The notes beneath the pieces are model-generated. The model searched no databases. It was given only the letters and a program-made list of their open reading frames with translations, and had not been told where the DNA came from. The position numbers and the translations under genes are program-made. Positions 19,598 through 37,730 of a stretch of 64,000 bases of DNA are shown in pieces (the first letter of the stretch is position 1; each line of letters opens with the position of its first letter). This DNA comes from a bacterium (lineage in GTDB: Bacteria; Patescibacteriota; Minisyncoccia; JAHIHE01), in contig JAUYBG010000006.1 in the NCBI GenBank assembly GCA_030693205.1, forward strand, positions 68,015 through 132,014. The letters run 5' to 3'.

Positions 19598-20173
19598 ATG
19601 ACGTCAATAACAATCAACCTTATTATCAAAAATCCGGGAAAATTACTTGCCGCTAAAAACGCATTTAGTAAATATGGAATTTTAATAAACCAAATTAATA
19701 AAGAATTCCCCGAAATTCAAGCGGACACAAGCTTGGAAATAGCTAAATATACAGCAATACAAGCTGCTAAAGAATTTAAAATGCCTATGATCAGAGAAGA
19801 CCACAGTATGTTTATAAACGCACTAGGCATTCCCGGTCCATACGCAAATTTTATAGAAAAACATCTGCCAGTTGAAAAATTATTGAAAATTCTTAAGACC
19901 CAAAAAGACAGAAGCGGCTATATGGAAGTTGCAACTGTTTTTGCTGAACCAAACGGCTTTACTTTAGAATATATGTACAAAGTACCTATTTATTTTGAAA
20001 ATAAAATTAATATTCCTGACCCGAAAAATGGCTGGAGCGGAATTATCAGACTCGCAAACGAAACAAGAACATTAACAGAATACCCTGAAGAAGAACGAGT
20101 GAATATATGGAATAAAAATTATATTTCTATCGCTGAATTCTTAATTAAAAATAAAGAAAAATATTTAAAATAA
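19598..20173 (+). CDS. Ham1/RdgB-like non-canonical purine NTP pyrophosphatase
   Basis: NPGKLLAAKNAF, EDHSM and ALGIPGPY blocks resemble the ITPase family. Confidence 0.55.
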   Translation: MTSITINLIIKNPGKLLAAKNAFSKYGILINQINKEFPEIQADTSLEIAKYTAIQAAKEFKMPMIREDHSMFINALGIPGPYANFIEKHLPVEKLLKILKTQKDRSGYMEVATVFAEPNGFTLEYMYKVPIYFENKINIPDPKNGWSGIIRLANETRTLTEYPEEERVNIWNKNYISIAEFLIKNKEKYLK

Positions 20174-20866
20174 TTTTAACATCTCGTTAACCCAATTATA
20201 AACACTTGGATACTTTTTCCACAAACGACTACCTTGTAAAATCAAATCTTTATGATCTGGATAACCGATATTTTTTATTTTTCCATGCAAAGAAATAAAA
20301 TCTTCAGTATCTTGGATTACAGCATTAAACACTTCTGCCATACCCCATAACTTTCCTTGTTCAGTATCCATCTTTCTAGTCTCGGGAAAGTTTTTTTGCA
20401 CAAAATCATAAAATATAAAATGGAGCATTTCGTGAAAAATAGTAAAAAGCTGAAAACTGCGATTATTATAAATAAAAACCTGAAACTCACCTGAATCAAG
20501 AAAACGAGGACAAAAATCAAATATAGAAAAATCGCCAATATATTTTTTCCTTGGCCACGGATACCCATTAAATAACTTACTTACCACTAAAAAGAAATTA
20601 TTTTGTTCTTGATTAATATATTTAATAGTATTTTCACTAAGAATTTTTATTTCTCTGTTATTAGATTTATAAAAATCTATAATGTATTTATTTAAAAATT
20701 TCTTTGGATTTTCAGCTGATTTAATTTCAATAAGTTTCGGATGATACTTCAAAGCTCTTTCCTTCCAAAAATCACACCCTCCAAAATTTGAGCTAAGGTA
20801 AAAATCCCAAGCTTTGACTTGATCTAGTTTTTGATCAAATTTTAATTTTATAATTGGTTGCTTCAT
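20165..20866 (-). CDS. HExxH-motif protein (putative zinc metallopeptidase-like) downstream of radical SAM enzyme A
   Basis: HEMLH motif (TIFHEMLHFIF); same strand, 80 nt after rSAM A. Confidence 0.45.
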   Translation of the reverse strand: MKQPIIKLKFDQKLDQVKAWDFYLSSNFGGCDFWKERALKYHPKLIEIKSAENPKKFLNKYIIDFYKSNNREIKILSENTIKYINQEQNNFFLVVSKLFNGYPWPRKKYIGDFSIFDFCPRFLDSGEFQVFIYNNRSFQLFTIFHEMLHFIFYDFVQKNFPETRKMDTEQGKLWGMAEVFNAVIQDTEDFISLHGKIKNIGYPDHKDLILQGSRLWKKYPSVYNWVNEMLKLF

Positions 20867-20947: not shown

Positions 20948-22336
20948 TTAACTAACCTGCGCTTGCTTATAAAGATCCCAAACAAGCCATTCGAGCGTCA
21001 TTTTCGCATGTACGCAAAAGCGTTTATCGAGTGCCCAAATAGAACCCTCTTCAAGCTCTGCTTGATATGGACAGCCTCCACCACAAATACCTAAAGCAGG
21101 GCAGCTTTGACATTCCGGCATATTCAGAGGCGATCTCATACTCCATTCTCTGAAATCTTTATCATTGCTGATATTAAAGTCGTTGTCGTAGACATTTGTT
21201 GGGAAATATTTCTTTTTACCAACAAACCCATGGCAAACTCCAATATCTCCATCAGGTGCAATCACTATCTGATTGCCCCCAGTTGCTCCGCAGTCAAATG
21301 GCCAAACTGTCTTTTCGATAAAAGCATTCGCTTTTCTCATTATGCGATCTTCGTAGACGCCTCTTTTTCTAAAAACTTGAAAAGCATCAAGAATAAATTT
21401 TGCCGCTCTTTCGTTGTAACCATTATCCATTTTTCCGTCATTACTAATCAGCAGATTTAATCCTAAATTGGATATTCCGCATTCATCCAGTAAAACCCGT
21501 ATGGTAGCGTCGAAATCACGGATACTTGCCTCTGAAAGAGTGCATGACGCACCGATATTCATACCTGCTTCTTTGCAAACCTGAAAGCCTCTTTTGATGT
21601 CTTGATAAACGGGCTCTCCGCTTGCATAGATCCGGCTGGAGTTAGTTGCAAAGTCATCGCCGTCAATTGATATTGAGACCTGAACATCGTGGCTCTTAAG
21701 CATTCTGGCAATCTCGTGATTTAATAAACTTCCATTAGTCACTAGATTAAGGGTTGTTTTTTTGGGAAGCTTACCACTTTCCATGTACTTTTTAATCTTA
21801 TTTAAAAGCATCTCAAGTACTGTCCAATTCAACAAGGGCTCTCCGCCATAAAAAACAATTGTTTTTTCTAGATCAAACTGTTCAGGATCTTCTGCAATTA
21901 ATCGACAAAAGAAATCAAGTCCTTTAAAAGCTATCTCCTCTGTCATATTACCCATGGGATTATTATTTTTTACAAAACAATAACCGCAACGGAAATTACA
22001 CCTTTCTGTTAGGATGACATAGGCTAAGTGGGGATAAGGCTTGCCAAGCAAATCCATGAAATAATCAATAGCTTTTTTATCTTCTGCGGGATCCTGGATC
22101 AAAACTTTTACATTTTTAAGGGCATCAACCGCTCTTAAAAAAGTTTCTTGATCTTTTGAGCCAACAAGCGCGAGTAGGCTTTGCGAATCAGCGCCTCCCT
22201 CAAATTTCTTAATTATCGGCAGAAGCGCATCCGGAATATAAACTGGCATCATCCGAAGAGAATGATAGCAAGCTATTACAGGTTTTTGCTCAAAAAAATG
22301 AGCGTATCTTGAAAGGAAAAGGGTTGTTCTTTCCAT
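20948..22336 (-). CDS. radical SAM/SPASM peptide-modifying enzyme A with an N-terminal RRE-like domain
   Basis: CNFRCGYC (CxxxCxxC); C-terminal SPASM cysteines (CGATGGNQ...CHGF...CQSCPALGICGGGCPYQ); AGGAGG ahead of the ATG. Confidence 0.8.
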   Translation of the reverse strand: MERTTLFLSRYAHFFEQKPVIACYHSLRMMPVYIPDALLPIIKKFEGGADSQSLLALVGSKDQETFLRAVDALKNVKVLIQDPAEDKKAIDYFMDLLGKPYPHLAYVILTERCNFRCGYCFVKNNNPMGNMTEEIAFKGLDFFCRLIAEDPEQFDLEKTIVFYGGEPLLNWTVLEMLLNKIKKYMESGKLPKKTTLNLVTNGSLLNHEIARMLKSHDVQVSISIDGDDFATNSSRIYASGEPVYQDIKRGFQVCKEAGMNIGASCTLSEASIRDFDATIRVLLDECGISNLGLNLLISNDGKMDNGYNERAAKFILDAFQVFRKRGVYEDRIMRKANAFIEKTVWPFDCGATGGNQIVIAPDGDIGVCHGFVGKKKYFPTNVYDNDFNISNDKDFREWSMRSPLNMPECQSCPALGICGGGCPYQAELEEGSIWALDKRFCVHAKMTLEWLVWDLYKQAQVS

Positions 22337-22433
22337 ACATTACCTCCTTTATTTCTATATAATCTATTTTCCTTTATTCGAACAAGGAAGGAGAAACCTT
22401 TGCTTCCCCATCCCTATTCGGCCGAACAGGTTT

Positions 22434-22577
22434 TTACCATAGCGATTTATCTATGCCCTTGTTGTATCTACATGCGCACTTACACGCACATGTACCACAT
22501 TTGGCTGCATGTACAGTATTTGCAGCATTACCTAGCACCTTAGCGGCATCTACCGCTGTTGGCGAAATAACATCCAT
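22434..22577 (-). CDS. candidate precursor peptide A (47 aa, five Cys)
   Basis: Unannotated ORF MDVISPTAVDAAKVLGNAANTVHAAKCGTCACKCACRYNKGIDKSLW; AGGAGG nine nt upstream; 97 nt upstream of rSAM A. Confidence 0.55.
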   Translation of the reverse strand: MDVISPTAVDAAKVLGNAANTVHAAKCGTCACKCACRYNKGIDKSLW

Positions 22578-22595
22578 TTTTACATCCTCCTGTAT

Positions 22596-22684
22596 GTTTT
22601 AAAAGAACTCATCTGGCTAAATAGCTTCTATTTAGCCATCCTTCCTTGAGCACAACTCTAACAAATCCGGGAGTTTTGTCAATG
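22596..22684 (-). promoter_or_regulatory. conserved promoter plus 5'-UTR hairpin element, copy A
   Basis: Minus-strand TTGACA-16nt-TAGAGT, then a 10-bp-stem hairpin ggctaaatag/ctatttagcc and agatgagttcttttaaaa before the SD; copies at 29237-29322 and 31934-32019. Confidence 0.5.
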
Positions 22685-22780
22685 ACAAGTTGCCATATAA
22701 AATAATCTTACAAAAAACATTCCCGCATTTATATACAAGAATGTTTTAATAACCAGAATAAACCTCGCCGATCTTTCATT

Positions 22781-24562: not shown

Positions 24563-25984
24563 TTATGGATTAACGTTGATCTGAACTCTATCCATAATAG
24601 GACCGTAACAACCATTCTTACTAGTTATTCTTAACCACCCCTCATACTTACCAGCTGCCGCATATGTCGTCGATGTCATACCTCCAGTATATGTTACATC
24701 AAATAATGCATTACCGAGAACACCTAAAACACCAAGTAATAAATCACAATTCGTTGTTTCACTTTTTGCATAATCTGATGTCCATCCTAACCATGGGGTA
24801 GTATAATCGATCTCATATCTATCTACCCCGTTATCAAAACCCGGACCATCACTGAGAACATCGGTTTTTAAATTTGGATAAGCATAGTCCGCTGAATAAG
24901 TTCTTCCATCGAAATAAACAGTTTCACCCACTTTAACGCTTACTTGTTTTCCCATAGGCATAAAAGTTGTCCCTACCCTTAAATCCGCTTTCATACAATG
25001 ATACAACCCATCGCTTGCCCAAGACGGATTTGAACAAATATCTTTGCAGGCAAGCTTTCCCGAAACAAAAATTTTCGCCGGATGTCGCGGGTAATCGGTT
25101 GCGATGCAGGCAGGAACTCCGGTAGCGGTAAAATTTACTACATTACTGGCAATAAAAGTTGAGCTGGAATACGGATCAGTTTCCGGAAAAATCGCCTGAA
25201 GTTTTACATCATCGGCACAAAATGTAGGAAGCGTAGACAAAATAGAAAAAATACCGCTAGCGTTCGTTTGTATTTGAGTATATCTCATTCCATCAATTCC
25301 TGCCCCATCATTAATAACATATACTCTTATATTGGTGTTAACCACGGGATTACCGCTTGCATCAGTAAGCTTCCCTGCCAGAGTTACAGAAGCGCCAACA
25401 GCCGCGGATGCTCCGTCTGCGGGAGAGGTTAAAGTGATTTTAGCGGGAGCATTAGGACTGACAAAAACATCTGCTTCCATATTATCTATGCAATGGCACG
25501 GCGCATTAACTGTTCCATTTCCCAATGAACCGGGTCCATCGCACATCTCAAGCGGATCGCTTGCCGTCGGACTATAACCTACCGCACTCCACGGCATCGC
25601 CGGATTTTTAAGCACTAGAATATCGGGGTTGATCGTGTTAATAATCACCCAAGAAGAAATGGCCAGAAGAAGGCCGATAATTGCCGAATTAATCGTGTGT
25701 TTGGCATCTTCGATGGCTGAAGGATTGCCGGCGGAAGTCAGATATCTTGCGCCCCCGATGACGATCGCGCCCATCGCCACAATACCGACTACGGAAATAA
25801 GAAAAGTATAAAGCCCGGAAAGATAGACTTGAACTTTTGCGCCGGGTGGAATGCCGGGAATAGTGACCAAAGCGTTATAAGTTGTCTGAGCTAAAGCGGA
25901 ATTCGAATAAAAAAATAAGCTTAGTAAAAATATAATGCTAGCTAAAACTATTTTTTTGTTTTTGCTAAAAATTTTTAAAATCAT
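24563..25984 (-). CDS. large secreted/membrane protein with an N-terminal TrbC/VirB2-like (T4SS pilin-like) domain
   Basis: Signal peptide; YLSGLYTFLISVVGIVAMGAIVIGGARYLTSAGNPSAIEDAKHTINSAIIGLLLAISSWVI pattern typical of CPR pilin-like proteins; large extracellular C-terminus. Confidence 0.45.
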   Translation of the reverse strand: MILKIFSKNKKIVLASIIFLLSLFFYSNSALAQTTYNALVTIPGIPPGAKVQVYLSGLYTFLISVVGIVAMGAIVIGGARYLTSAGNPSAIEDAKHTINSAIIGLLLAISSWVIINTINPDILVLKNPAMPWSAVGYSPTASDPLEMCDGPGSLGNGTVNAPCHCIDNMEADVFVSPNAPAKITLTSPADGASAAVGASVTLAGKLTDASGNPVVNTNIRVYVINDGAGIDGMRYTQIQTNASGIFSILSTLPTFCADDVKLQAIFPETDPYSSSTFIASNVVNFTATGVPACIATDYPRHPAKIFVSGKLACKDICSNPSWASDGLYHCMKADLRVGTTFMPMGKQVSVKVGETVYFDGRTYSADYAYPNLKTDVLSDGPGFDNGVDRYEIDYTTPWLGWTSDYAKSETTNCDLLLGVLGVLGNALFDVTYTGGMTSTTYAAAGKYEGWLRITSKNGCYGPIMDRVQINVNP

Positions 25985-26014: not shown

Positions 26015-26172
26015 TTATACAATTATTGGGGTTTTTAGACAAGCGTGAACTATATATTTTCCCAAATTTTATCTTTATCTTTATCTTCCTGCCGCACCGG
26101 CAAAATTACGGTAAAAGTCGAGCCTTTACCTTCCCCTTCCGAGATTACCTTAATTTTTCCGTGACAGTACTT
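26015..26172 (-). pseudogene. histidine kinase 3'-end fragment, copy 1
   Basis: DNA-level homology to the last ~50 codons of the HK gene at 32065-34050 (cctgccgcaccggcaaaattacggtaaaagtcgagcc...); the +strand track ORF 26026-26220 is a wrong-strand artefact. Confidence 0.5.
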
Positions 26173-26850
26173 TTATTTTTTCTTTCCAATAATAATTACT
26201 CGCCGACTATTAATATTTAATTTCTCCATATCATAATTTCCATATACTGAAGATATGAATAAGTTATTATCGTTAAACTTTCTTTTAAGTTCTGGAAAAG
26301 TATAATACCTTACTCCTTTATTACTATGATCTTTGTCTACGACAAGCTCCATCTTGGTAAAATCAAATTTATATGGAGCTTTCGGATTTTCTCTTAAATA
26401 GCCGATAACCCTAAATACATTATCGCAGTCCAGTAAAAACATTCCATTCTTTTCCATTATTTTAGTAATATTTTTCAATGTTTCGTCAGGCTCAATCATT
26501 CTAAGATCAGAAAAAAATAAGAATATTTTATTATACTTTTTTTTAAGATCTAATTTATGAATATCCTGTGTAAAAAAATTTATCTCTAAATTTTCTTGTT
26601 TGGCGTGCTTTTTGGCAACCTCGATCAAATAATCGGAAAAATCCAAACCATCAATATTATATCCTCTTTTTTTAAGCTCAATAGTATGCCGTCCGTTACC
26701 GCAAGCAACATCTAATATCTTGTCTCTCTTTTTTAATTTTAAGGATTTAATAAGAAAATCAACGTCTTTTTGCAGCTGTTCCGGGGAAAAATATTCTTTA
26801 TGCTCTTCTAGATAAGAACCTTTTGGACCATAATACCGTTTTAGACTCAT
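26173..26850 (-). CDS. class I SAM-dependent methyltransferase
   Basis: Motif I (ILDVACGNGRH) and post-I acidic residue. Confidence 0.8.
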   Translation of the reverse strand: MSLKRYYGPKGSYLEEHKEYFSPEQLQKDVDFLIKSLKLKKRDKILDVACGNGRHTIELKKRGYNIDGLDFSDYLIEVAKKHAKQENLEINFFTQDIHKLDLKKKYNKIFLFFSDLRMIEPDETLKNITKIMEKNGMFLLDCDNVFRVIGYLRENPKAPYKFDFTKMELVVDKDHSNKGVRYYTFPELKRKFNDNNLFISSVYGNYDMEKLNINSRRVIIIGKKK

Positions 26851-26864
26851 AATTTTATTTATAA

Positions 26865-27608
26865 TTATATTTTTACTCCAACAATAATCATTCTCTTGCT
26901 GTTAAAATCAAAATTCTCTCCTTCATAAGATCCATAAACTTTTTTTATCCTTAAACCATTTTCTTCTAAGATTTTTTTAATTTCTGGAAAAGAATACAGT
27001 CTTAAAATATATTCGGATTTTTTTTGTTTTCCTTTTTCTGTAATTTTTAGTTTTACATGGTCTTGGAAAGTAATTGGATTAAAAGCATGATTTTCCAAAA
27101 TATTTTTTTTACCATTTTTGTATTTAAAAACACTTTTAAAATGAGATAAAAAATAACAAATATTCCGAGTGTCAATTATAAATTTCCCTTTACGATTTAA
27201 TGATTTAGAAATATTTTCAATAATTTTTCTGTTGTCGCTATCGCTAAAATATCCGAATGAAGTAAAAAGATTAAGAATAACATCAAATCTTTTTTTAAAT
27301 AAAAACTTACAAATATCCCCATAAATAAAATCTGCTTTAACGCCTTTTTCTTTGGCAATATTTTTTCCAACTCTTAAAAAAGGTTTTGAATAATCAATGC
27401 CCACCACATTATATCCTCTTTCTGCTAATCCAATCATATGTCTGCCCCAGCCACAACATAAATCTAAAATTTTGTCTTCTTTTTTTAATCTTAAAATATT
27501 AATGATAAAATCAATTTCTTTTTTGGTTCTCTTGTCGTCAAAAAGAAAATAATAAAGCTCTAAATAATCTTTATTAAAATAGTATTTCCACCAATTATTT
27601 TTAATCAT
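26865..27608 (-). CDS. class I SAM-dependent methyltransferase, paralog of 26173-26850
   Basis: ILDLCCGWGRHMIGLAERGYNVVGIDYS. Confidence 0.8.
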   Translation of the reverse strand: MIKNNWWKYYFNKDYLELYYFLFDDKRTKKEIDFIINILRLKKEDKILDLCCGWGRHMIGLAERGYNVVGIDYSKPFLRVGKNIAKEKGVKADFIYGDICKFLFKKRFDVILNLFTSFGYFSDSDNRKIIENISKSLNRKGKFIIDTRNICYFLSHFKSVFKYKNGKKNILENHAFNPITFQDHVKLKITEKGKQKKSEYILRLYSFPEIKKILEENGLRIKKVYGSYEGENFDFNSKRMIIVGVKI

Positions 27609-27681
27609 TTTATTTTTTTATTTATTAAACCTTTGGTTTATTTTAGTATAGCATAAATAAAAATTTTATCAATATAAAAAT

Positions 27682-27707
27682 AACTGTAAAATTTGAATTT
27701 TACAGTT
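27682..27707 (-). terminator. hairpin plus T-rich tract at the stop of rSAM B
   Basis: aactgtaaaat/attttacagtt perfect inverted repeat. Confidence 0.35.
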
Positions 27708-29025
27708 ATAAACTTTTTAAATTCCAGCAAGTCTGATCGGCATGAACATCATCGCCAAATTTTGACATAGATATTCCCTTGCATCCTCCATTGCACGACA
27801 AAGAAAATTTACATACTAGACATTCTTGTACTATATCCATCGAAAACGGATTTGTTTTTTCCCAAATCGAACGGATATTATTATTCGTCAAATTTCCTAA
27901 AACCGGAAGTCGCGAATGTGGACAAGGAGTAATTTTTCCGTCGAAAGTTATATTACAAATACTTCTTCCTGCTTCACATCCTCTTATTGCTTTTATAGAT
28001 TGATCTATAAGAAAAGGAAAAAATACCAATTTCTCGTAAGAAATCATTTTGGGGTATTTTTTTTCTAACAAAACCAATGTTTCGGTCGCGATTCTGAGTT
28101 GGTCGCTTGTTAATTTAGAAAGAGAATTTGCTCTTCCTTCTTGCATACATCTAAAAGCAATAAACCAGTCTATTCCTAAATCATAAACAGCTAAAAATGT
28201 TTCTTCTATTTTATCAAAGTTTAGATTATTAACCGTCATTGCGCAGCGAACATTCATTCCCTGATTTTTAAGAATCGTAATCGCTCTAATGGCTTTTTCG
28301 TATACTCCTTTTCCTCGAATAAAATCGTGTATCGTTTCTGGACCATCAATGCTTACTTGAATTACCGATAAACCTGTTCTCGATAGTTTTGCCGCTCTTC
28401 TTTTAGTTACCAATATTCCATTGGTGCTAAGCGAAACGCTGACACCTTCTTTCGTTGCTCTTTCGATTATTTCATCAAGGCAACAGACAAGCAATGGCTC
28501 TCCGCCACCAAGACCAAGATAGAATATTCCATTATCCAATAGCTGCTTTTCTATCGCAAATATTTGCTCTGCAGATAAAGCATTTTTTGTTAAACCAGAT
28601 CCTGTATAGCAATGCTTGCATCTTAAATTACAAAGATCAGTTAATTCCCAAAAAACTATTGAAGGGAATTTTAATTTGGGAAATACAATAGGTTTATCGT
28701 CTGTATTATTGGAAAATTTTTTAGTTGATAATATTATGCGTCTATTACAGCTATCAAATAAACCAATTTCTCCAATCTGATTTACGAAAGCAATAATTGT
28801 TTCATCGTTTATATTTTTATGCCTTCTTTTTATTTCCTGAACAATGTCACTAAGACTGATTTCTCCTGTGCATAATTCTATAATTTCTATTCCAATTTTA
28901 TTTACCCGAAAACATATTTGATCAGTTTCTATGGCTAGCTCTACTGGCGGTTTAACTAATCCACCAAAATTTTCTCTGCGATGGCGTACCCCTTTTGTCA
29001 AGTGTGGCTTAAAATCTTGTTCCAT
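27706..29025 (-). CDS. radical SAM/SPASM enzyme B with an N-terminal PqqD-like RiPP recognition element
   Basis: N-terminus (VNKIGIEIIELCTGEISLSDIVQEI) is PqqD-like; CNLRCKHC; SPASM C-terminus (CLVCKFSLSCNGGCKG). Confidence 0.8.
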   Translation of the reverse strand: MEQDFKPHLTKGVRHRRENFGGLVKPPVELAIETDQICFRVNKIGIEIIELCTGEISLSDIVQEIKRRHKNINDETIIAFVNQIGEIGLFDSCNRRIILSTKKFSNNTDDKPIVFPKLKFPSIVFWELTDLCNLRCKHCYTGSGLTKNALSAEQIFAIEKQLLDNGIFYLGLGGGEPLLVCCLDEIIERATKEGVSVSLSTNGILVTKRRAAKLSRTGLSVIQVSIDGPETIHDFIRGKGVYEKAIRAITILKNQGMNVRCAMTVNNLNFDKIEETFLAVYDLGIDWFIAFRCMQEGRANSLSKLTSDQLRIATETLVLLEKKYPKMISYEKLVFFPFLIDQSIKAIRGCEAGRSICNITFDGKITPCPHSRLPVLGNLTNNNIRSIWEKTNPFSMDIVQECLVCKFSLSCNGGCKGISMSKFGDDVHADQTCWNLKSL

Positions 29026-29111
29026 TATTAACCTCCATATAATTCAATTTCTTGTCTAAATAAAATATTTGGAATTATTGCCTTTTAAAAAACAATAATT
29101 CCAAAACCCGT

Positions 29112-29219
29112 CTAATCTCCGGCATAAGTTGGGAGCATTACGCATCCTGTAGATATCCTTTCTATTACTGGACTTTCTTGCTCCGAATCTTTCTCTGTCT
29201 TAGAATTTTCTAAACCCAT
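29112..29219 (-). CDS. candidate precursor peptide B (35 aa)
   Basis: MGLENSKTEKDSEQESPVIERISTGCVMLPTYAGD; gaggaggtgaaaaaATG; hairpin ggaattattg/caataattcc between it and rSAM B. Confidence 0.5.
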   Translation of the reverse strand: MGLENSKTEKDSEQESPVIERISTGCVMLPTYAGD

Positions 29220-29236: not shown

Positions 29237-29322
29237 TTTTAAAAGAACTCATCTGGCTAAATAGTTTCTATTTAGCCATCCTTCCTTGCGTATAACCCTA
29301 GCAAATCCAGGGGTTTTGTCAA
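29237..29322 (-). promoter_or_regulatory. conserved promoter plus 5'-UTR hairpin element, copy B
   Basis: TTGACA-16nt-TAGGGT and the same hairpin, with loop tttc instead of gctt. Confidence 0.5.
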
Positions 29323-29334
29323 ATACTGACTCCC

Positions 29335-29580
29335 GCTGATTACTTATATTGGGGTTTTTAGACAAGCACGAACTATATATATTCCCAAATTTTATCTTTA
29401 TCTTCCTGCCGCACCGGCAAAATTACGGTAAAAGTCGAGCCCGCGCCTTCCCCTTCCGAGACCACCTTAATTTTTCCGCCATGCTTGGCTATGATCTGCT
29501 TGGCGATAAAAAGTCCCAGGCCGGAACCGTTCGGATTGATATAATTGGATTTTTTCCCGCGTGAAAATTTTTGAAAAATC
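29335..29580 (-). pseudogene. histidine kinase 3'-end fragment, copy 2
   Basis: ~240 bp homologous to the last ~75 codons of HK 32065-34050 (ATP-lid to C-terminus), with the stop region mutated. Confidence 0.55.
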
Positions 29581-30332
29581 TATTTTAGACCACCTTTCCA
29601 TTCCTTTTCTAATTCTTCGATCGATTTTTCGAAACCATTTTCAATAATTTTTAAATTTTCCTCGGAATTATTTAATCGCGACAATCTTTGGTAAGTTTTT
29701 TTAAACTTATCCCATCCGTAAGTATTGATTAAAAATCTGACAAAAGAGCCAACTTCCGGATAAATTATTTTAGAATCAACCTTTTCCCAATTTTTATTAT
29801 CAATTAAGTTTTTGATAGAATACAGTTTTTTCTGACTCAATAACTCTTTGGAAATTATATCAATATCCTTACCGAATAAATTTCCTTCCATAAACTGAGC
29901 TAATCCCTCGCAAAACAAATATATCGATAACCCAAGGGATAAAGACAAAAAATGAGTATCTTCATGCTCGCCGATAAACTGGCATTTATCATTATAAATC
30001 GTATGAATTTCAAATTTGTTTGTTTTTGGTTCGCTATTAACTAATTCAAAATCTCCCCAAATCACATTACCAGGGCTGTCATCGCCCATTAAAGATGCTT
30101 TGCTTTTTAAGGACGGATAAATATAATAATGAATAATTTGCTTATTTTTTAAATCAAGAAACGATAAAATTTTATTGTGATGTTTTTCTTTTAGCTTAAT
30201 AATTTTATAAATATCATTTTCAGCTAAAGAATTTTTGAGATAGTAAAAAACATAATGGTTGCTTTTTTGTTTAATCCATTTTTGCCTCAAATAATCGTTT
30301 TTATACCACGGAATTTCTTGTTTTATTTTCAT
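29580..30332 (-). CDS. HExxH-motif protein downstream of radical SAM enzyme C
   Basis: IGEHEDTHF motif; 250 aa; directly after rSAM C. Confidence 0.45.
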   Translation of the reverse strand: MKIKQEIPWYKNDYLRQKWIKQKSNHYVFYYLKNSLAENDIYKIIKLKEKHHNKILSFLDLKNKQIIHYYIYPSLKSKASLMGDDSPGNVIWGDFELVNSEPKTNKFEIHTIYNDKCQFIGEHEDTHFLSLSLGLSIYLFCEGLAQFMEGNLFGKDIDIISKELLSQKKLYSIKNLIDNKNWEKVDSKIIYPEVGSFVRFLINTYGWDKFKKTYQRLSRLNNSEENLKIIENGFEKSIEELEKEWKGGLK

Positions 30333-30406
30333 ATTGATATATTAGCTTAAATATTATACCAAACAATAAAAAAATTAGCCATTATTGTGTTTAAATGGCT
30401 ATAGCT

Positions 30407-31909
30407 TTATTCAAAGTTTAATTTTACTAATCCCTTATTTATTTTTTCCACAAGTTCACGCCTGCAATATGGTTCTAATAGACTACCTATTGTTACATAG
30501 GCATCAAACCGACATCCTCCGCCACAAATAGGAACGAACGGGCAATCTTCTGAAAGACATTTATCCAGATAGCTAAAATCCATAAATTTTGCATCATCGG
30601 TATTAGCCGTTGAATCTATGTTTCCAAAAGAAAATCCATCTCTTCCTACTGTGCTTATGCATTTAAGCAATGCTCCGTCTGGCTCTATTGTAGCCGAATT
30701 TATAGCTCTCGCGGTACACCAAGGACCGACTAAATATTCTTGAGGAATTACAAATCCTCTTTTCTTTGCTTCCTTGCAAAGCCACAGATATTTATCAGCG
30801 CTCTCGCTAAAACTTAATCCAAATTCATTAAGGTAAGAGTCCGGCGCTCGCTTGCCCATATCTCCGCAAATAGTTGGAGCCACTATACCAAAAGAGAATT
30901 CTATTTTATCCTGCAGTTTATTTTCTGCCAAAAAATCAAACAGCTGCGGTATTAAATCAACATTCTGCCGGTCAAAATTGACTCTAAGGTGAATTTTTTT
31001 AACAAAACCTTGATTTATAGAACTCAAGATATTTTTTGAAATTTTATCAAATGTACCCTTGCCGTCTTTTCTGAACCTTCTTAAGTCGTGTACTTTTCCG
31101 TATCCATCAAGAGTTATCTGAACTCTATCAAGGTTGCATCCGTTTAAGAAAGAGGCAATTTCTTTATCAAAAAATTCACCATTTGTCATTATGCCGAGTT
31201 CAAGTGCTAAGTTTTTTTGCTTGGCTATCGTGTGCAGTTTTGGCAAAATAAATCTGATTGTCTTTTTATTCAATAACGGCTCGCCCCCGTACAGAACTAC
31301 TCTTAGCTTATTGCAACCAGCATGGTTACCTAGATAAGCATCACACCAATTCACTATTTCATCGGCTATTTGAATTGACATTGATTTATGTTTTTCTATT
31401 CCTCTCTCGAAACAGTAAGGGCAGGCCAGCTGGCAATTTCTAGTAAGGACAAGATATATTCCGAAAGTTTTATCATCCAATCTGGCCTTATGGAATAGCT
31501 CTTTGTATTTTAGCTTTTCGTTTAATTCCGCAGGAACGAGCATTTCCATTTTTACGAGCTCATTTATGTAATCGCCTAAATACGAACCAGTAATATTAGA
31601 TTGTCCATTGTTTGTAATTTCATCGATTTCTCTTTTTAGCCGTCCGGTTAATCTTACTGTGCTTGTAGTCAGCGTATTTCTAGCGATGATTTTATCGCTG
31701 TTTTCATATTCAATCCAAAACACAAATCGAGACCATTTCAGTTTCACATCGTTCACCTCTTTGTCATTGATATATTTTTGGGGAAGTTTTATTAAACCTC
31801 CCCCTTTGCTTATGCGGTTAATAACCGCAGCCATCTTTACCCATATCGCCGGTACGGGTTCCGGAATCAGTGCCTTTTTGGAGCACTTCAAAATCTTGGT
31901 TGCCGTCAT
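30407..31909 (-). CDS. radical SAM/SPASM enzyme C
   Basis: CQLACPYC; SPASM (CLSEDCPFVPICGGGCRFD). The track start (31909) overlaps candidate precursor C; the true start may be M26 (31834) or similar. Confidence 0.75.
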   Translation of the reverse strand: MTATKILKCSKKALIPEPVPAIWVKMAAVINRISKGGGLIKLPQKYINDKEVNDVKLKWSRFVFWIEYENSDKIIARNTLTTSTVRLTGRLKREIDEITNNGQSNITGSYLGDYINELVKMEMLVPAELNEKLKYKELFHKARLDDKTFGIYLVLTRNCQLACPYCFERGIEKHKSMSIQIADEIVNWCDAYLGNHAGCNKLRVVLYGGEPLLNKKTIRFILPKLHTIAKQKNLALELGIMTNGEFFDKEIASFLNGCNLDRVQITLDGYGKVHDLRRFRKDGKGTFDKISKNILSSINQGFVKKIHLRVNFDRQNVDLIPQLFDFLAENKLQDKIEFSFGIVAPTICGDMGKRAPDSYLNEFGLSFSESADKYLWLCKEAKKRGFVIPQEYLVGPWCTARAINSATIEPDGALLKCISTVGRDGFSFGNIDSTANTDDAKFMDFSYLDKCLSEDCPFVPICGGGCRFDAYVTIGSLLEPYCRRELVEKINKGLVKLNFE

Positions 31910-31916
31910 TGCTCAT
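31818..31916 (-). CDS. candidate precursor peptide C (32 aa)
   Basis: MSNDGNQDFEVLQKGTDSGTRTGDMGKDGCGY; the same gaggaggtgaaaaaATG context as precursor B. Confidence 0.45.
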   Translation of the reverse strand: MSNDGNQDFEVLQKGTDSGTRTGDMGKDGCGY

Positions 31917-31933: not shown

Positions 31934-32019
31934 TTTTAAAAGAACTCATCTGACTAAATAGCTTCTATTTGGTCATCCTTCCTTACAATAACCTTAACAA
32001 ATCTCAATAATTTGTCAAT
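31934..32019 (-). promoter_or_regulatory. conserved promoter plus 5'-UTR hairpin element, copy C
   Basis: TTGACA-16nt-TAAGGT; hairpin gaccaaatag/ctatttagtc (one mismatch). Confidence 0.5.
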
Positions 32020-32064: not shown

Positions 32065-34050
32065 CTATCTTCCCTGCCGCACCGGCAAAGACACGATAAA
32101 AGTCGAACCTTTGCCTTCCCCCTCCGAGATTACTTTGATTTTTCCGTGATGCTTAGCTATGATCTGCTTGGCGATAAAAAGTCCCAGGCCGGAACCGTTC
32201 GGATTGATATAATTGGATTTTTTCCCGCGGGAAAATTTCTGAAAAAGAATTTTTTTATCATCCCCGCTCAAGCCTATGCCCGTATCAGTAAAATAAATAT
32301 TCACGTTATCTTTCTCCCGCTTAACTTCAATAATCAATCCGCCTTTTTCGGTATATTTTTCTGCGTTATCTATTAAGTTCATAAAAACATTGTGAAGAAG
32401 CTTTTCGTCAGCTTCGATCTTCGGAATCTTCTGGGAAGATCTTTTGTATTTCAAATATAAATTCTTTTTTTTGAAATTAAGATTAAGCATTTCGATATTT
32501 TCCTGAAGCATCTTCCGTATATCAATTGGCTGAAAATTCAATTTTAACTCCCCTTCGCTTTCCGTCGCTGTCACCATATCGTTGACGATATTGTTAAGAC
32601 GCTCTGTATTATCCACGATTCTCGCTTTTACTTCCAACTTTTTTTCCGGAGTAGCTTTGTCAAAATCCTTGGCATTCCACATTGAAATAAATCCCCGCAT
32701 TACAGTCAAGGGAGTCCTAAGCTGGTGAGAGACGATATGTAAAAAATCACTCTTCACATCCAATGCGTTTTTAAGCTTGTCTTTGGCTATAGTAAGCTCT
32801 TCGATATTTTTATTCAAATTTTGATAAAATTGAAGGTTATCCATAACTACGCTTACATGCTGGGTAAAAGCATTGATTAGATCTAAATCTCTCGGGCTGA
32901 CTTCCGTAATTTCTTTGGTAAAAATAAAAATCAAAGCTCCTTTTTTCTCGCCTCTGATTGTCATTGGAACCGATGCGAATGTTTTTCCGCCAAGTTTCTC
33001 TTGTATCAATAGGGACGTGGGCTTATCCAACGGCGGACAAATAAAATCCGCTATGTTCGACCCTTTTTCAATTTCGTTATTGAGAATACTTTTGATAACC
33101 AGACCGCAATTTTTAGAATTTTTGCTATCAACAATCAAGCTGTAATCGCTTAATTCAGGCTTAGATAATAAACACCTTGCTTGCCTCATTTTATCTGATT
33201 CTGTGGTAATATAAGCGCAAGCTTTTCCACTATCTTCATCGTAGCGAATTAAAAATGTTCCCATAATACCAAGATGCCCGAGTTTTGCCGGCACAGCATC
33301 CATAATATTCTGCACGCTTTTTTCAATTTCCACTCCCAAAGAAACCATTTTGTTTAAAGACAGAAGGGATTCCAAATCCTGCGTTTTTTCCTCAAGATTT
33401 TTTAATTGATTTCTAATTTGTTCGTATTGACGAATATTATTGATTGCAATAGCCACTTGATCAGAAAAAGTTTTAAGCATTTCCTGCTCTTCTTGAGAAA
33501 ATTCTTTTCTGGTTGAGGTAAAGAATACTACTCCCAAAATTTTGTCTAAAAATATAACAGGAAGAGAAATACAAAGATTCATGCCCATAAATTTCTGCAT
33601 AGTATCAGCCAATGATGCATTTACAGCGGGACTGATAAATTCACTCATATGTGCCCCTACATGAATTTTTCTTGTAAGGTAAGTTTGTACGGTTAAATTA
33701 TCATCAAGATTTAATGGGTAAGTGTGTTCTTTGAATGGCTTATTCAGCCATCCGACAACTTTTTGGCCTAAATATGATTGCGTATAAGACCAAGGTATAA
33801 GTTGCTTATTAATTTCGTCAGGTAAAAACAACACTCCTCCTATGAAATCCATCTCTTCAACCATAACGTTCACCATCTTTTGGGTCAATGCTTCATAATC
33901 TTTGATAGTAACAAGCATAGAGAATATTTTCTGCAAAGTCTTGTAGCGCATCTCTTTTGAGGTTGGTTTTTCTACAAGTCTACCTTTAAATCTATCGGTA
34001 TCAATGTTTGGGAAGATAAGCTTTCTTATTATACCTTGGATTAAGTTCAT
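32065..34050 (-). CDS. cytoplasmic sensor histidine kinase (GAF-GAF-HisKA-HATPase)
   Basis: H-box HQLRTPL; N, G1, G2 boxes (NLIDNAEKYT, DTGIGLS, GSGLGLFIAKQII); no TM segments. Confidence 0.85.
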   Translation of the reverse strand: MNLIQGIIRKLIFPNIDTDRFKGRLVEKPTSKEMRYKTLQKIFSMLVTIKDYEALTQKMVNVMVEEMDFIGGVLFLPDEINKQLIPWSYTQSYLGQKVVGWLNKPFKEHTYPLNLDDNLTVQTYLTRKIHVGAHMSEFISPAVNASLADTMQKFMGMNLCISLPVIFLDKILGVVFFTSTRKEFSQEEQEMLKTFSDQVAIAINNIRQYEQIRNQLKNLEEKTQDLESLLSLNKMVSLGVEIEKSVQNIMDAVPAKLGHLGIMGTFLIRYDEDSGKACAYITTESDKMRQARCLLSKPELSDYSLIVDSKNSKNCGLVIKSILNNEIEKGSNIADFICPPLDKPTSLLIQEKLGGKTFASVPMTIRGEKKGALIFIFTKEITEVSPRDLDLINAFTQHVSVVMDNLQFYQNLNKNIEELTIAKDKLKNALDVKSDFLHIVSHQLRTPLTVMRGFISMWNAKDFDKATPEKKLEVKARIVDNTERLNNIVNDMVTATESEGELKLNFQPIDIRKMLQENIEMLNLNFKKKNLYLKYKRSSQKIPKIEADEKLLHNVFMNLIDNAEKYTEKGGLIIEVKREKDNVNIYFTDTGIGLSGDDKKILFQKFSRGKKSNYINPNGSGLGLFIAKQIIAKHHGKIKVISEGEGKGSTFIVSLPVRQGR

Positions 34051-35087: not shown

Positions 35088-35303
35088 CTAAATAAACCCA
35101 CCTTGTTTTCCCACTTTCTCATACTCCTTCACCCATTTTTGCAACTCCGCCGGCAATTTCACGTTTTTAACTTCCTCAATTTCTTTTTCGATCCTCTTTG
35201 GGGTCAATTCTCTTAATATTCCGCAAACTACCGGATATTTTCTCTGCTCCGCCTTGGTAAAACCGTAATAATTAAGAAGCGATTGTGTTTTTTCTTTAGC
35301 CAT
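35088..35303 (-). CDS. small hypothetical protein (71 aa)
   Basis: Start at [15 protein letters not shown]; a truncated paralog lies at 37325-37447. Confidence 0.4.
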
Positions 35304-35389
35304 TTTAAAAAAATTATTAATTAAGTTCTCTTTTTCCTCCCTTGGTAAGCCGTAGCCTTGGCGCAAGGTGACTATCCTGCAAATTTTAA

Positions 35390-37185: not shown

Positions 37186-37324
37186 AAATGTGAATATTTT
37201 TAATTAATAAAAAACTTTAGTTTTGATCATATCCTAAAATAAACCCTGATGACATACGGTTAATTTTACAACATATTTTTTATTTCAGTTAAAAACTTTA
37301 ATTTTAATTTTTAACTTCCTCGAT

Positions 37325-37447
37325 TTATTTTTCAATCCTTCCCGGAATTAATTCCCCCAGAATTCCCGCCACCACCGGATATTTTTTCTGCTCCATTGCT
37401 GTAAAACCATAATAACCGAGAAGCGATTCTGTTTTTTCTTTAGCCAT
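37325..37447 (-). pseudogene. truncated duplicate of the 35088-35303 gene
   Basis: MAKEKTESLLGYYGFTAMEQKKYPVVAGILGELIPGRIEK then stop; flanking DNA also conserved. Confidence 0.4.
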
Positions 37448-37730
37448 TTTAAAAAAAATATTAATTAAACTTTTTTCTCATTTTTAATTTCCTTTTCTCG
37501 AACTTCTTTATTAACTTTATCAACATTCTGTAAAATTTTATCGTCCATTATAAATTTTTTACAAATTAATCCTTTGATTTTCATTTTTTAGATTATACCA
37601 TATTTTGCCAAAATAAACAAAATACCCGTATAACATTAACCAAAAACGGGAATATAGAATGAATTTATACGGAAATAAAAAACTCCAAGAGCAATTCCTG
37701 GATTTTTTATAAATTTAACAATTGTGAGCG

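Follow-up and report, generated by a model that had tools for sequence, protein, structure and literature searches.

A candidate kink-turn leader at the promoters of radical-SAM peptide cassettes in Patescibacteria

The kink-turn (k-turn) is an RNA motif to which a protein usually binds. In archaea, L7Ae represses its own mRNA through a k-turn stem-loop in the leader (PMC6298567), and in bacteria YbxF/OapC and YlxQ bind k-turns (PMC9723947). Stem-loops at the 5' terminus stabilise mRNAs (PMC3997798). Here we describe an element that occurs three times on the minus strand of a 64,000-nucleotide (nt) stretch of a Patescibacteria metagenome-assembled genome (assembly GCA_030693205.1, contig JAUYBG010000006.1, positions 68,015 to 132,014 of the forward strand; hereafter the window) and that appears to be the promoter and 5' leader of mobile radical-SAM cassettes for ribosomally made, modified peptides (RiPPs). 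Its leader contains an internal loop that, by every sequence-level test, looks like a standard k-turn, which makes it a candidate for a new class of cis-regulatory RNA, that is a stand-alone bacterial k-turn leader on mobile peptide-biosynthesis cassettes. Patescibacteria (Candidate Phyla Radiation) are uncultivated, and to our knowledge almost nothing is known of their gene regulation or of the purpose of their modified peptides. In the literature, we found no description of a conserved leader of RiPP cassettes in Patescibacteria.

A promoter-leader module repeated ahead of three cassettes

By reading the sequence and by a repeat search, we found the module on the minus strand at 22597-22682 (copy A), 29237-29322 (copy B) and 31934-32018 (copy C). 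The repeat search placed the three in one family, in which B is 91% and C 70% identical to A (C being delimited there as 31934-32019, 1 nt out of register). All copies have the same order, with TTGACA, a 16-nt spacer, a TGn extension and a -10 hexamer that reads TAGAGT in A, TAGGGT in B and TAAGGT in C. The -35 and -10 boxes lie at 22682-22677 and 22660-22655 in copy A (with the TG at 22663-22662), at 29322-29317 and 29300-29295 in copy B, and at 32018-32013 and 31996-31991 in copy C. About 7 nt downstream of the -10 come (C)AAGGAAGGA, an inverted repeat, GATGAGTTCTTTTAAAA, a Shine-Dalgarno (SD) sequence and ATG, and the leader runs to TTTTAAAA in copy A. A covariance model of the element (R1) scores the copies at 85.7 (A), 87.6 (B) and 84.0 bits (C). 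The three modules are the only sites in the 64 kb that carry the 11-nt and 19-nt flank patterns, three matches to the 19-mer pattern were reached in 0 of 100 shuffles, and the palindrome pattern is likewise confined to the modules. An initial annotation of this DNA had described three minus-strand copies of TTGACA-16 nt-TA(G/A)(A/G)GT followed by a shared structured 5'-UTR, which these data confirm.

The same annotation called the upstream part a sigma70-like promoter, and the evidence for this call is mixed. On the one hand, the -35 is perfect, the spacer is 16 nt and the TG is present in all three copies, and TTGACA is also kept in five of the loci from other genomes described below (L002 and L025-L028), L034 having TTGGAC instead. 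On the other hand, the -10 hexamer matches the consensus at 4 of 6 positions in A and 3 of 6 in B and C, only copy A passes a promoter scan (10/12 with the TG) while B and C do not, and promoter-like sites in this A+T-rich region are no commoner than in shuffles. We provisionally call the element a sigma-70-type promoter on the basis of its perfect and conserved -35, its TG extension and its position, not of statistics.

Directly 3' of each module stands a small open reading frame (ORF) of 47, 35 or 32 codons with a Cys near the C-terminus, followed by a radical-SAM/SPASM enzyme and by accessory genes that differ from cassette to cassette. Judged from this gene content, the three are RiPP cassettes. 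Their maturases are 21-27% identical and their precursors cannot be aligned, so that the shared leader is not the remnant of a diverged tandem duplication of whole cassettes. This supports the initial view of the element as a promoter with a structured leader common to three cassettes.

Folding from the predicted start to the SD showed that the invariant flanks are complementary to each other and that the hairpin makes up no more than the distal half of an extended P1/k-turn/P2 stem-loop. Every leader with the 'box' UUCUUU folds alike, with an outer helix P1 (AAGGAA paired with the box), an asymmetric internal loop and a distal hairpin P2; in the k-turn layout, the 11-bp hairpin corresponds to the C helix and the outer helix to the NC helix. 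In copy A, the stem-loop spans 22602-22647 of the minus strand (minimum free energy -16.5, z -4.98) and, from its arms, pair counts and the k-turn definition, divides into an NC helix (AAGGAA 22647-22642 with UUCUUU 22607-22602), a 3b.3n pair G.G (22608 for 3b and 22641 for 3n), the GA of G2n and A1n (22640-22639), the C helix (22638-22628 with 22624-22614, closed by the loop AAG 22627-22625), the bulge GAU (22613-22611) and the GA of G1b and A2b (22610-22609). The stem-loop of copy B lies at 29287-29242, with its C helix at 29278-29268/29264-29254, and that of copy C at 31984-31939, with its C helix at 31975-31965/31961-31951. Folding z-scores of the box leaders range from -1.6 (window C) to -5.0 (window A), the predicted probability of hairpin formation is 0.88-0.98, and the stem-loop ends 9-10 nt before the SD.

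The hairpin differs in some details from its initial description. Instead of a 10-bp stem with a four-nt loop, the arms are 11 bp (TGGCTAAATAG/CTATTTAGCCA) and the loop is 3 nt. The loops were also said to differ between copies, but on the transcribed strand they read AAG in A, AAA in B and AAG in C, so that B alone deviates, by one base. As for a stem kept with a single mismatch in copy C, the mismatch (C.A) is there, but copy C also has one compensatory change, from G:C to A:U.

A conserved structure ahead of biosynthetic genes could in principle be a small-molecule riboswitch or an attenuator built on an intrinsic terminator. We regard this as highly improbable. The element consists of just one stem-loop, whose loop has 3 nt and whose stem varies freely, and it has neither a multi-helix junction nor a conserved pocket; the stem is A+U-rich, 9 nt separate it from the U run, and a terminator scan makes no call. 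In Rfam release 15, only tRNAs reach the gathering score across the window, and nothing matches at E <= 10 on 22380-22720. Two further candidates were ruled out. A hammerhead core (CUGAUGA) does not fit, as the element reads CAGAUGA and has no Rfam hit, and neither does a miniature inverted-repeat transposable element or an integron attC site, as there are no terminal inverted repeats and the palindrome stands at the 5' end of each cassette, beside the promoter. The GGA sequences of the leader show no more than a resemblance to CsrA-type sites.

Covariation, the kink-turn consensus and a proposed role

By scanning a genome collection with both invariant flanks, we obtained 6 matches, of which only one was real. 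This locus (L002), from the metagenome-assembled genome of another member of the Patescibacteria, is a true extra copy and heads a fourth, unrelated radical SAM-methyltransferase cassette whose radical-SAM enzyme is 25% identical to that of cassette B. The flank pattern is over-strict, as it would miss L034, in which one flank base differs. That locus came from the homologues of maturase A; it is a cassette-A orthologue (maturase 86% identical) with a window-type leader carrying two core substitutions, and R1, built without it, recovers it at E = 7e-17. The same model picked up three more orthologues (L025, L026 and L027, maturase 69-74% identical) whose homologous leaders are much shorter and diverged and nevertheless fold into the same P1/loop/P2 shape. 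Other cassette-A orthologues (L019-L024, L028, L029 and L030) carry other leaders. A metagenome scan with the flanks gave a single match, in coding DNA, and a viral one gave 8 matches, all due to chance; no copy came from viral contigs scanned at the protein level, nor from phages and plasmids searched with BLAST.

The initial annotation had suggested selection on structure, with covariation in additional copies as the check, and the copies from other genomes bear this out. In the five window-type copies (window A-C, L002 and L034), pairing is kept in 54 of 55 hairpin cells, including 3 compensatory pairs and 1 G.U; the score for covariation was reached by 2 of 500 shuffles and collapsed in slid controls. 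These symmetric changes preserve the palindrome and would thus also suit a repeat that acts in the DNA, as the operator of a dimeric repressor just downstream of the promoter (+10 to +35), the more so because a perfect 11-bp inverted repeat with a 3-bp spacer stands right after the -10 in all copies and is found in the window only at these promoters. We nonetheless regard an operator as quite unlikely: the half-sites vary, at three positions in L002 and at one in copy C of the same genome, the symmetry is broken in L034 and copy C, and in L025-L027 the repeat shrinks to 3-4 bp of unrelated sequence between constant flanks. An operator also leaves the invariant, mutually complementary flanks unexplained, and no DNA-binding regulator was found among the genes next to the cassettes.

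We then compared window A with L034. In the leader core (AAGGAA to TTTTAAAA), 50 of 52 positions are identical (96%), against 66% of third codon positions in the maturase, 54% in the precursor and 70% in the gene for a 233-amino-acid (aa) accessory protein, and about 45% in the promoter spacer. The difference between 96% and 54-70% shows strong purifying selection on the leader and not hitch-hiking. Of the flank nucleotides, around 30 are invariant or almost invariant, and the changes in the stem are compensatory; the leader is selected for sequence as well as structure. The initial annotation had left room for duplication hitch-hiking, in which the element has no function of its own and the similarity is the residue of a recent duplication or gene conversion of the promoter region. 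This is partly right for B and C, which were copied along with non-functional 3' fragments of a kinase gene, part of them ~98% identical to the live gene. It does not explain A, L002 and L034, whose similarity is confined to the stretch from the -35 to the end of the leader, and with the compensatory substitutions and the contrast to synonymous-type sites added, we consider it very unlikely as a general account.

A standard k-turn has a 3-nt bulge followed 3' by G.A and A.G pairs, and a Watson-Crick helix 5' of the bulge (PMC5061560). The internal loop fits this definition in all eight leaders, with GA before the hairpin and a 3-nt bulge plus GA after it. Directly 3' of the hairpin, the bulge reads GAU in the five window-type copies and in L026, AAU in L027 and CGU in L025. 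In an alignment of the eight (A5, trimmed to the proximal C-helix pairs: window A-C, L002, L034 and L025-L027), the GA after the bulge and the GA immediately 5' of the C helix (columns 11, 12, 26 and 27) never change, and the invariant columns are exactly G2n, A1n, L3 = U, G1b, A2b, G3b and U4b-C6b. At the same time, the C helix shrinks from 11 bp to 3-4 bp and takes on an unrelated sequence, its changes being compensated. Over this range of 3-11 bp it is 98-100% paired; NC positions 4-9 are 86% paired, with one compensatory pair, and position 7b:7n covaries between G.U and U-A. The covariation score of the alignment was reached by 0 of 500 shuffles. The single flank substitution of L034 falls on 3n, a known variable k-turn position. 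At 3b,3n, the window copies, L002 and L027 have G.G, L034 has G.U, and L025 and L026 have G.C. According to published folding rules, G.U and G.C at this pair do not fold in Mg2+ alone and need protein, like U4 snRNA, whereas the class with 3n = G can fold unaided; applied to these leaders, the rules predict mixed behaviour.

How much of this conservation could be met by a plain expression leader, without a dedicated regulator? Such a leader would stabilise the mRNA and enhance translation in the manner of aprE, ermC or cryIIIA STAB-SD, giving a high output of precursor, and the GA/GA loop would be a tolerated or stabilising irregularity. Several observations agree with it: the stem-loop begins at the predicted +1 (P1 at +1 or +2 if transcription starts 7-8 nt after the -10) and its hairpin is predicted to form with the high probability given above, hairpins also follow the precursor genes of cassettes A and B, which is the classical RiPP layout for abundant short precursor transcripts, and orthologues without the k-turn box mostly keep a leader hairpin (L019, L028 and L029). 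A simple stabiliser, however, needs structure and not sequence, yet it is the flanks that stay near-invariant while the stem drifts, and the invariant loop nucleotides are exactly those that define a k-turn, in leaders whose helices are completely different. We therefore see the plain leader as possible, though on the doubtful side.

The leaders also contain a start codon. In all eight box leaders it stands at the same place (AUG; GUG in L025), opening a mini-ORF (AUG AGU UCU UUU AAA AUU UGA = MSSFKI*; MSSFK(I/T/N)*) that could itself be the core of the element, served by a split ribosome-binding site and coupling or attenuating precursor translation by terminating at the main SD. Five of the leaders (window B, window C, L002, L034 and L027) place its stop immediately ahead of the main SD, and in window A and L025 the stop precedes the main AUG by 2-3 nt; the variable sites of the box are third codon positions; and with the 25-nt hairpin looped out, AAGGA would lie 5 nt from the AUG instead of 30, comparable to T4 gene 38, where 22 nt become 5 (PMC3014915). 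The k-turn, however, already accounts for the AUG, which is its L2-L3-1b, and box position 7, which is one of the two 'third-position' sites, covaries with the P1 nucleotide that it pairs with. At the boundary between the AU-rich tract and the SD, a U followed by two purines will by chance be a stop codon 3 times out of 4. Moreover, the frame runs into the precursor in L026, an SD-like GAGGG lies inside the stem in L025 and L026, and the ORF is absent from L019 and L028-L030; in L028-L030 a sequence resembling UUCUUUAA is still present but has no start codon. UUCUUU is predicted to pair with the main SD only weakly, and to an extent that varies from copy to copy (probability 0.01-0.83). We find a translated mini-ORF unlikely as the core of the element. 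A switch between SD, anti-SD and anti-anti-SD, or a fourU-type thermometer in which UUCUUU pairs with AAGGAA or with the main SD, was rejected as a general mechanism, as the predicted partition varies by copy and temperature. So was another mini-ORF, AUG GCU AAA UAG, which is not conserved and loses its stop in L002 through a compensatory stem change.

Our preferred proposal, whose chances we regard as about even, is a 5'-terminal k-turn stem-loop that coordinates the cassettes by shielding the end of the mRNA, by docking a k-turn-binding protein, or by both means. If transcription starts 7-8 nt past the -10, the RNA would begin at the first A of AAGGAA and would fold from its first nucleotides into one irregular, presumably kinked stem-loop. 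The 5' end of the precursor mRNA would in that case be buried in P1, and the mRNA could thereby be protected from 5'-end-dependent decay. The stem-loop could also be a docking site for an L7Ae/YbxF/YlxQ-type k-turn-binding protein, or for another binder, and from its position 9-10 nt ahead of the SD, a bound protein could adjust translation or stability in one direction or the other. The initial annotation had named an RNA-binding protein as one possible regulator, and this idea gains weight because the conserved internal loop fits the k-turn definition. Since the same leader stands on three unrelated cassettes, we propose that these respond to the same factor; they are probably controlled together after transcription.

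Several points weigh against this proposal. First, a generic k-turn descriptor gives 7 matches in the window and 6.95 in shuffles; being that common by chance, it cannot carry the case for a k-turn, which rests on the conservation pattern in the eight leaders, and these are only eight, five of them close relatives. Second come features of the window copies themselves: their G.G at 3b,3n belongs to the class able to fold without protein, -1b:-1n is A-U in the window-type copies and not the usual G-C or C-G, and the C helix of copy C contains the C.A mismatch. Third, no L7Ae/YbxF/YlxQ-like ORF was found in the 64 kb of the window or in ~123 kb of sequence from related loci, a weak negative result because these cover a minor part of each genome. 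Fourth, four orthologous cassettes (L019, L028, L029 and L030) have leaders without the k-turn box, so that the motif is not essential to the cassette family. Finally, the transcription start is only a predicted one, and the SD lies outside the stem-loop, so that the archaeal occlusion mechanism is not directly transferable.

A bolder form of the proposal, which we put forward tentatively and with less confidence, is that the leader serves as a stand-alone bacterial k-turn 'regulon tag', through which a Patescibacteria k-turn-binding protein would switch unrelated RiPP cassettes together, the promoter-leader unit of ~86 nt being exchanged between mobile cassettes and plugging each new one into host control. 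In any case, a compact, conserved promoter-leader is common to at least four unrelated radical-SAM peptide cassettes. If the proposal is true, this sharing would give a first indication that Patescibacteria co-regulate their secondary metabolism at the post-transcriptional level. The element yields an RNA of ~50 nt for in vitro work and a covariance model for finding further members and a co-occurring binder, and it could serve as a portable element for expressing these peptides in heterologous hosts.

Cassettes, insertion sites and neighbouring genes

All genes of the three cassettes lie on the minus strand. In cassette A, the 47-aa precursor-like ORF (22434-22577, ...AAKCGTCACKCACRYNKGIDKSLW) recurs as the same 47-aa ORF in orthologous cassettes. 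The radical SAM/SPASM maturase (20948-22336, 462 aa) is close to the FibroRumin family TIGR04136, with 387 bits against a cut-off of 400, and the 233-aa accessory protein (20165-20866), to which no family was assigned, is conserved in all cassette-A orthologues. PDB sequence searches with this protein and with a 317-aa protein gave no match. Cassette B comprises a 35-aa precursor-like ORF (29112-29219), followed directly by a long hairpin of 17-19 bp (29068-29105), and enzymes at 26173-29025, namely a radical SAM/SPASM protein with a PqqD-like N-terminus (27706-29025) and two methyltransferases (26865-27608 and 26173-26850). Cassette C has a 32-aa precursor-like ORF (31818-31916) and enzymes at 29580-31909, consisting of a CefB/geopeptide-like radical SAM protein (ORF 30407-31909), whose true start is probably downstream of 31818, and a peptidase-MA-like protein (29580-30332).

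Directly after precursor A come two hairpins (22390-22430), a palindrome at 22413-22430 and a terminator-like stem at 22409-22390. The spacer of ~100 nt that holds them, between precursor A and the maturase (22337-22433; 2508-2606 in L034), is conserved far above the flanking third codon positions and may be a second functional non-coding element, for instance a leaky terminator or a processing site. Just past the hairpin, TCCTTCCTTG (22383-22392) is complementary over 10 of 10 nt to CAAGGAAGGA of the leader (22639-22648). In L034 this complementarity is lost, for which reason we ruled out a long-range pairing of the leader with this region, and cassettes B and C offer no clear counterpart.

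The fourth cassette, in L002, has a gene order unlike that of the window cassettes, with the module directly before the radical-SAM gene. After this gene, a 37-codon ORF (L002 6308-6421, minus strand) with a strong SD (AAGGAGGTGA) and a GTG start may be its precursor. Among the cassette-A orthologues, we observed a large serine recombinase (L019 4023-5456), an IS30-like integrase (L027 2057-3046) and a tRNA gene (L025 ~60-130) adjoining the cassette, neighbours which suggest that cassette A moves as part of small mobile elements.

The window kinase and maturase homologues come from Patescibacteria. A look-up of the exact kinase translation gave no record, although an identical protein (P0001) exists. 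Two relatives (L016 and L017, kinase 63-69% identical) keep the backbone of the locus, that is an unknown protein, a GAF kinase, a pilin-like protein and then rplU and recR, and the radical-SAM cassettes are absent at these sites in both of them. It follows that cassettes C and B were inserted between the kinase and the pilin-like gene and A after rplU, and that each cassette brought or acquired its module. The intact GAF sensor histidine kinase gene (32065-34050, minus strand) lies directly upstream of module C as a syntenic member of the backbone, outside the cassette. Behind each of cassettes C and B, the last 100-235 nt of this gene recur as a dead copy, together with the start of the kinase-pilin intergenic region (live gene: 32065-32246). 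The first remnant, a histidine-kinase 3' end with intergenic DNA (29391-29578, minus strand), is upstream of module B, and the second, a histidine-kinase 3' end with the original kinase-pilin intergenic region (26024-26161, minus strand), is downstream of cassette B, with no module after it. In the fragment upstream of B, one part matches the live kinase gene at ~98% identity and the remainder is closer to the other fragment than to the live gene, which looks like stacking of cassettes at one hotspot, beside the sensor-kinase gene, through recombination between different alleles.

Other features of the region were noted in passing. A Ham1-like gene (19598-20173) lies between rplU and recR in the window only, compared with L016 and L017. 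The pilin-like gene (24563-25984; L016 6867-8168; L017 4503-5882), which always follows the GAF kinase in this lineage, encodes a T4S pilin-like N-terminus and bacterial Ig-like domains and has its own promoter-like sequence (TTGCACTTGTyTAA...TGTATAAT). A direct repeat (35164-35324 and 37308-37468, 80% identical) spans, in each copy, the start of a small ORF, MAKEKT..SLL.YYGFT; the two look like paralogous small genes of unassigned function upstream of the kinase operon.

Comparison with known leaders and kink-turns

The core of the leader appears to resemble the k-turns of U4 snRNA and of box C/D RNAs. In L027, the bulged strand CC-AAU-GA-G together with the GA before the C helix matches what we take to be the sequence of the U4 snRNA 5' stem-loop, and the A-GAU-GA-G of the window copies can be set against box C, which we take to be RUGAUGA. 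In U4, the loop caps the NC helix, whereas in the present leader it is the C helix that forms the capped hairpin. The leader also differs from both in having neither a guide function nor a D-box CUGA, and from box C at 3b/4b.

Among bacterial systems, the Bacillus 5' stabilisers (the aprE leader stem-loop, the ermC leader and the cryIIIA STAB-SD; PMC3997798) likewise combine a purine-rich, SD-like tract with a stem-loop right at the 5' end, ahead of a gene that needs expression far above its operon partners. They need structure or ribosome binding but no specific loop, whereas the loop nucleotides are the most conserved part of the present leader. The split ribosome-binding sites of T4 genes 38 and 25 (PMC3014915) share a hairpin between an SD-like sequence and an AUG that shortens the effective spacing, here 5 nt in place of 30, but in the present case this arrangement would serve a 6-codon upstream ORF and not the main gene, and the AUG is also explained by the k-turn. 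A further comparison is with the k-turns of bacterial leaders and OLE RNA bound by YbxF/OapC and YlxQ (PMC4316175, PMC9723947), since these too are k-turns in RNAs of Gram-positive-type bacteria to which L7Ae homologues bind. In riboswitches, however, the k-turn serves the architecture of a large aptamer, and the present leader has no further domain.

Functionally, the element seems closest to the archaeal L7Ae leader k-turn (PMC5539422, PMC6298567), of whose leader switch it would, if our proposal is true, be a bacterial counterpart. In both, a stand-alone k-turn stem-loop lies in an mRNA leader near the ribosome-binding site, and the leaders of L025, L026 and L034 have the 3b,3n class that needs protein. 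The two differ in that the present host is bacterial, that the leader precedes RiPP precursors and not the gene of the binder, that the SD stands 9-10 nt outside the stem-loop, and that the window copies, with 3n = G, may fold in Mg2+ alone.

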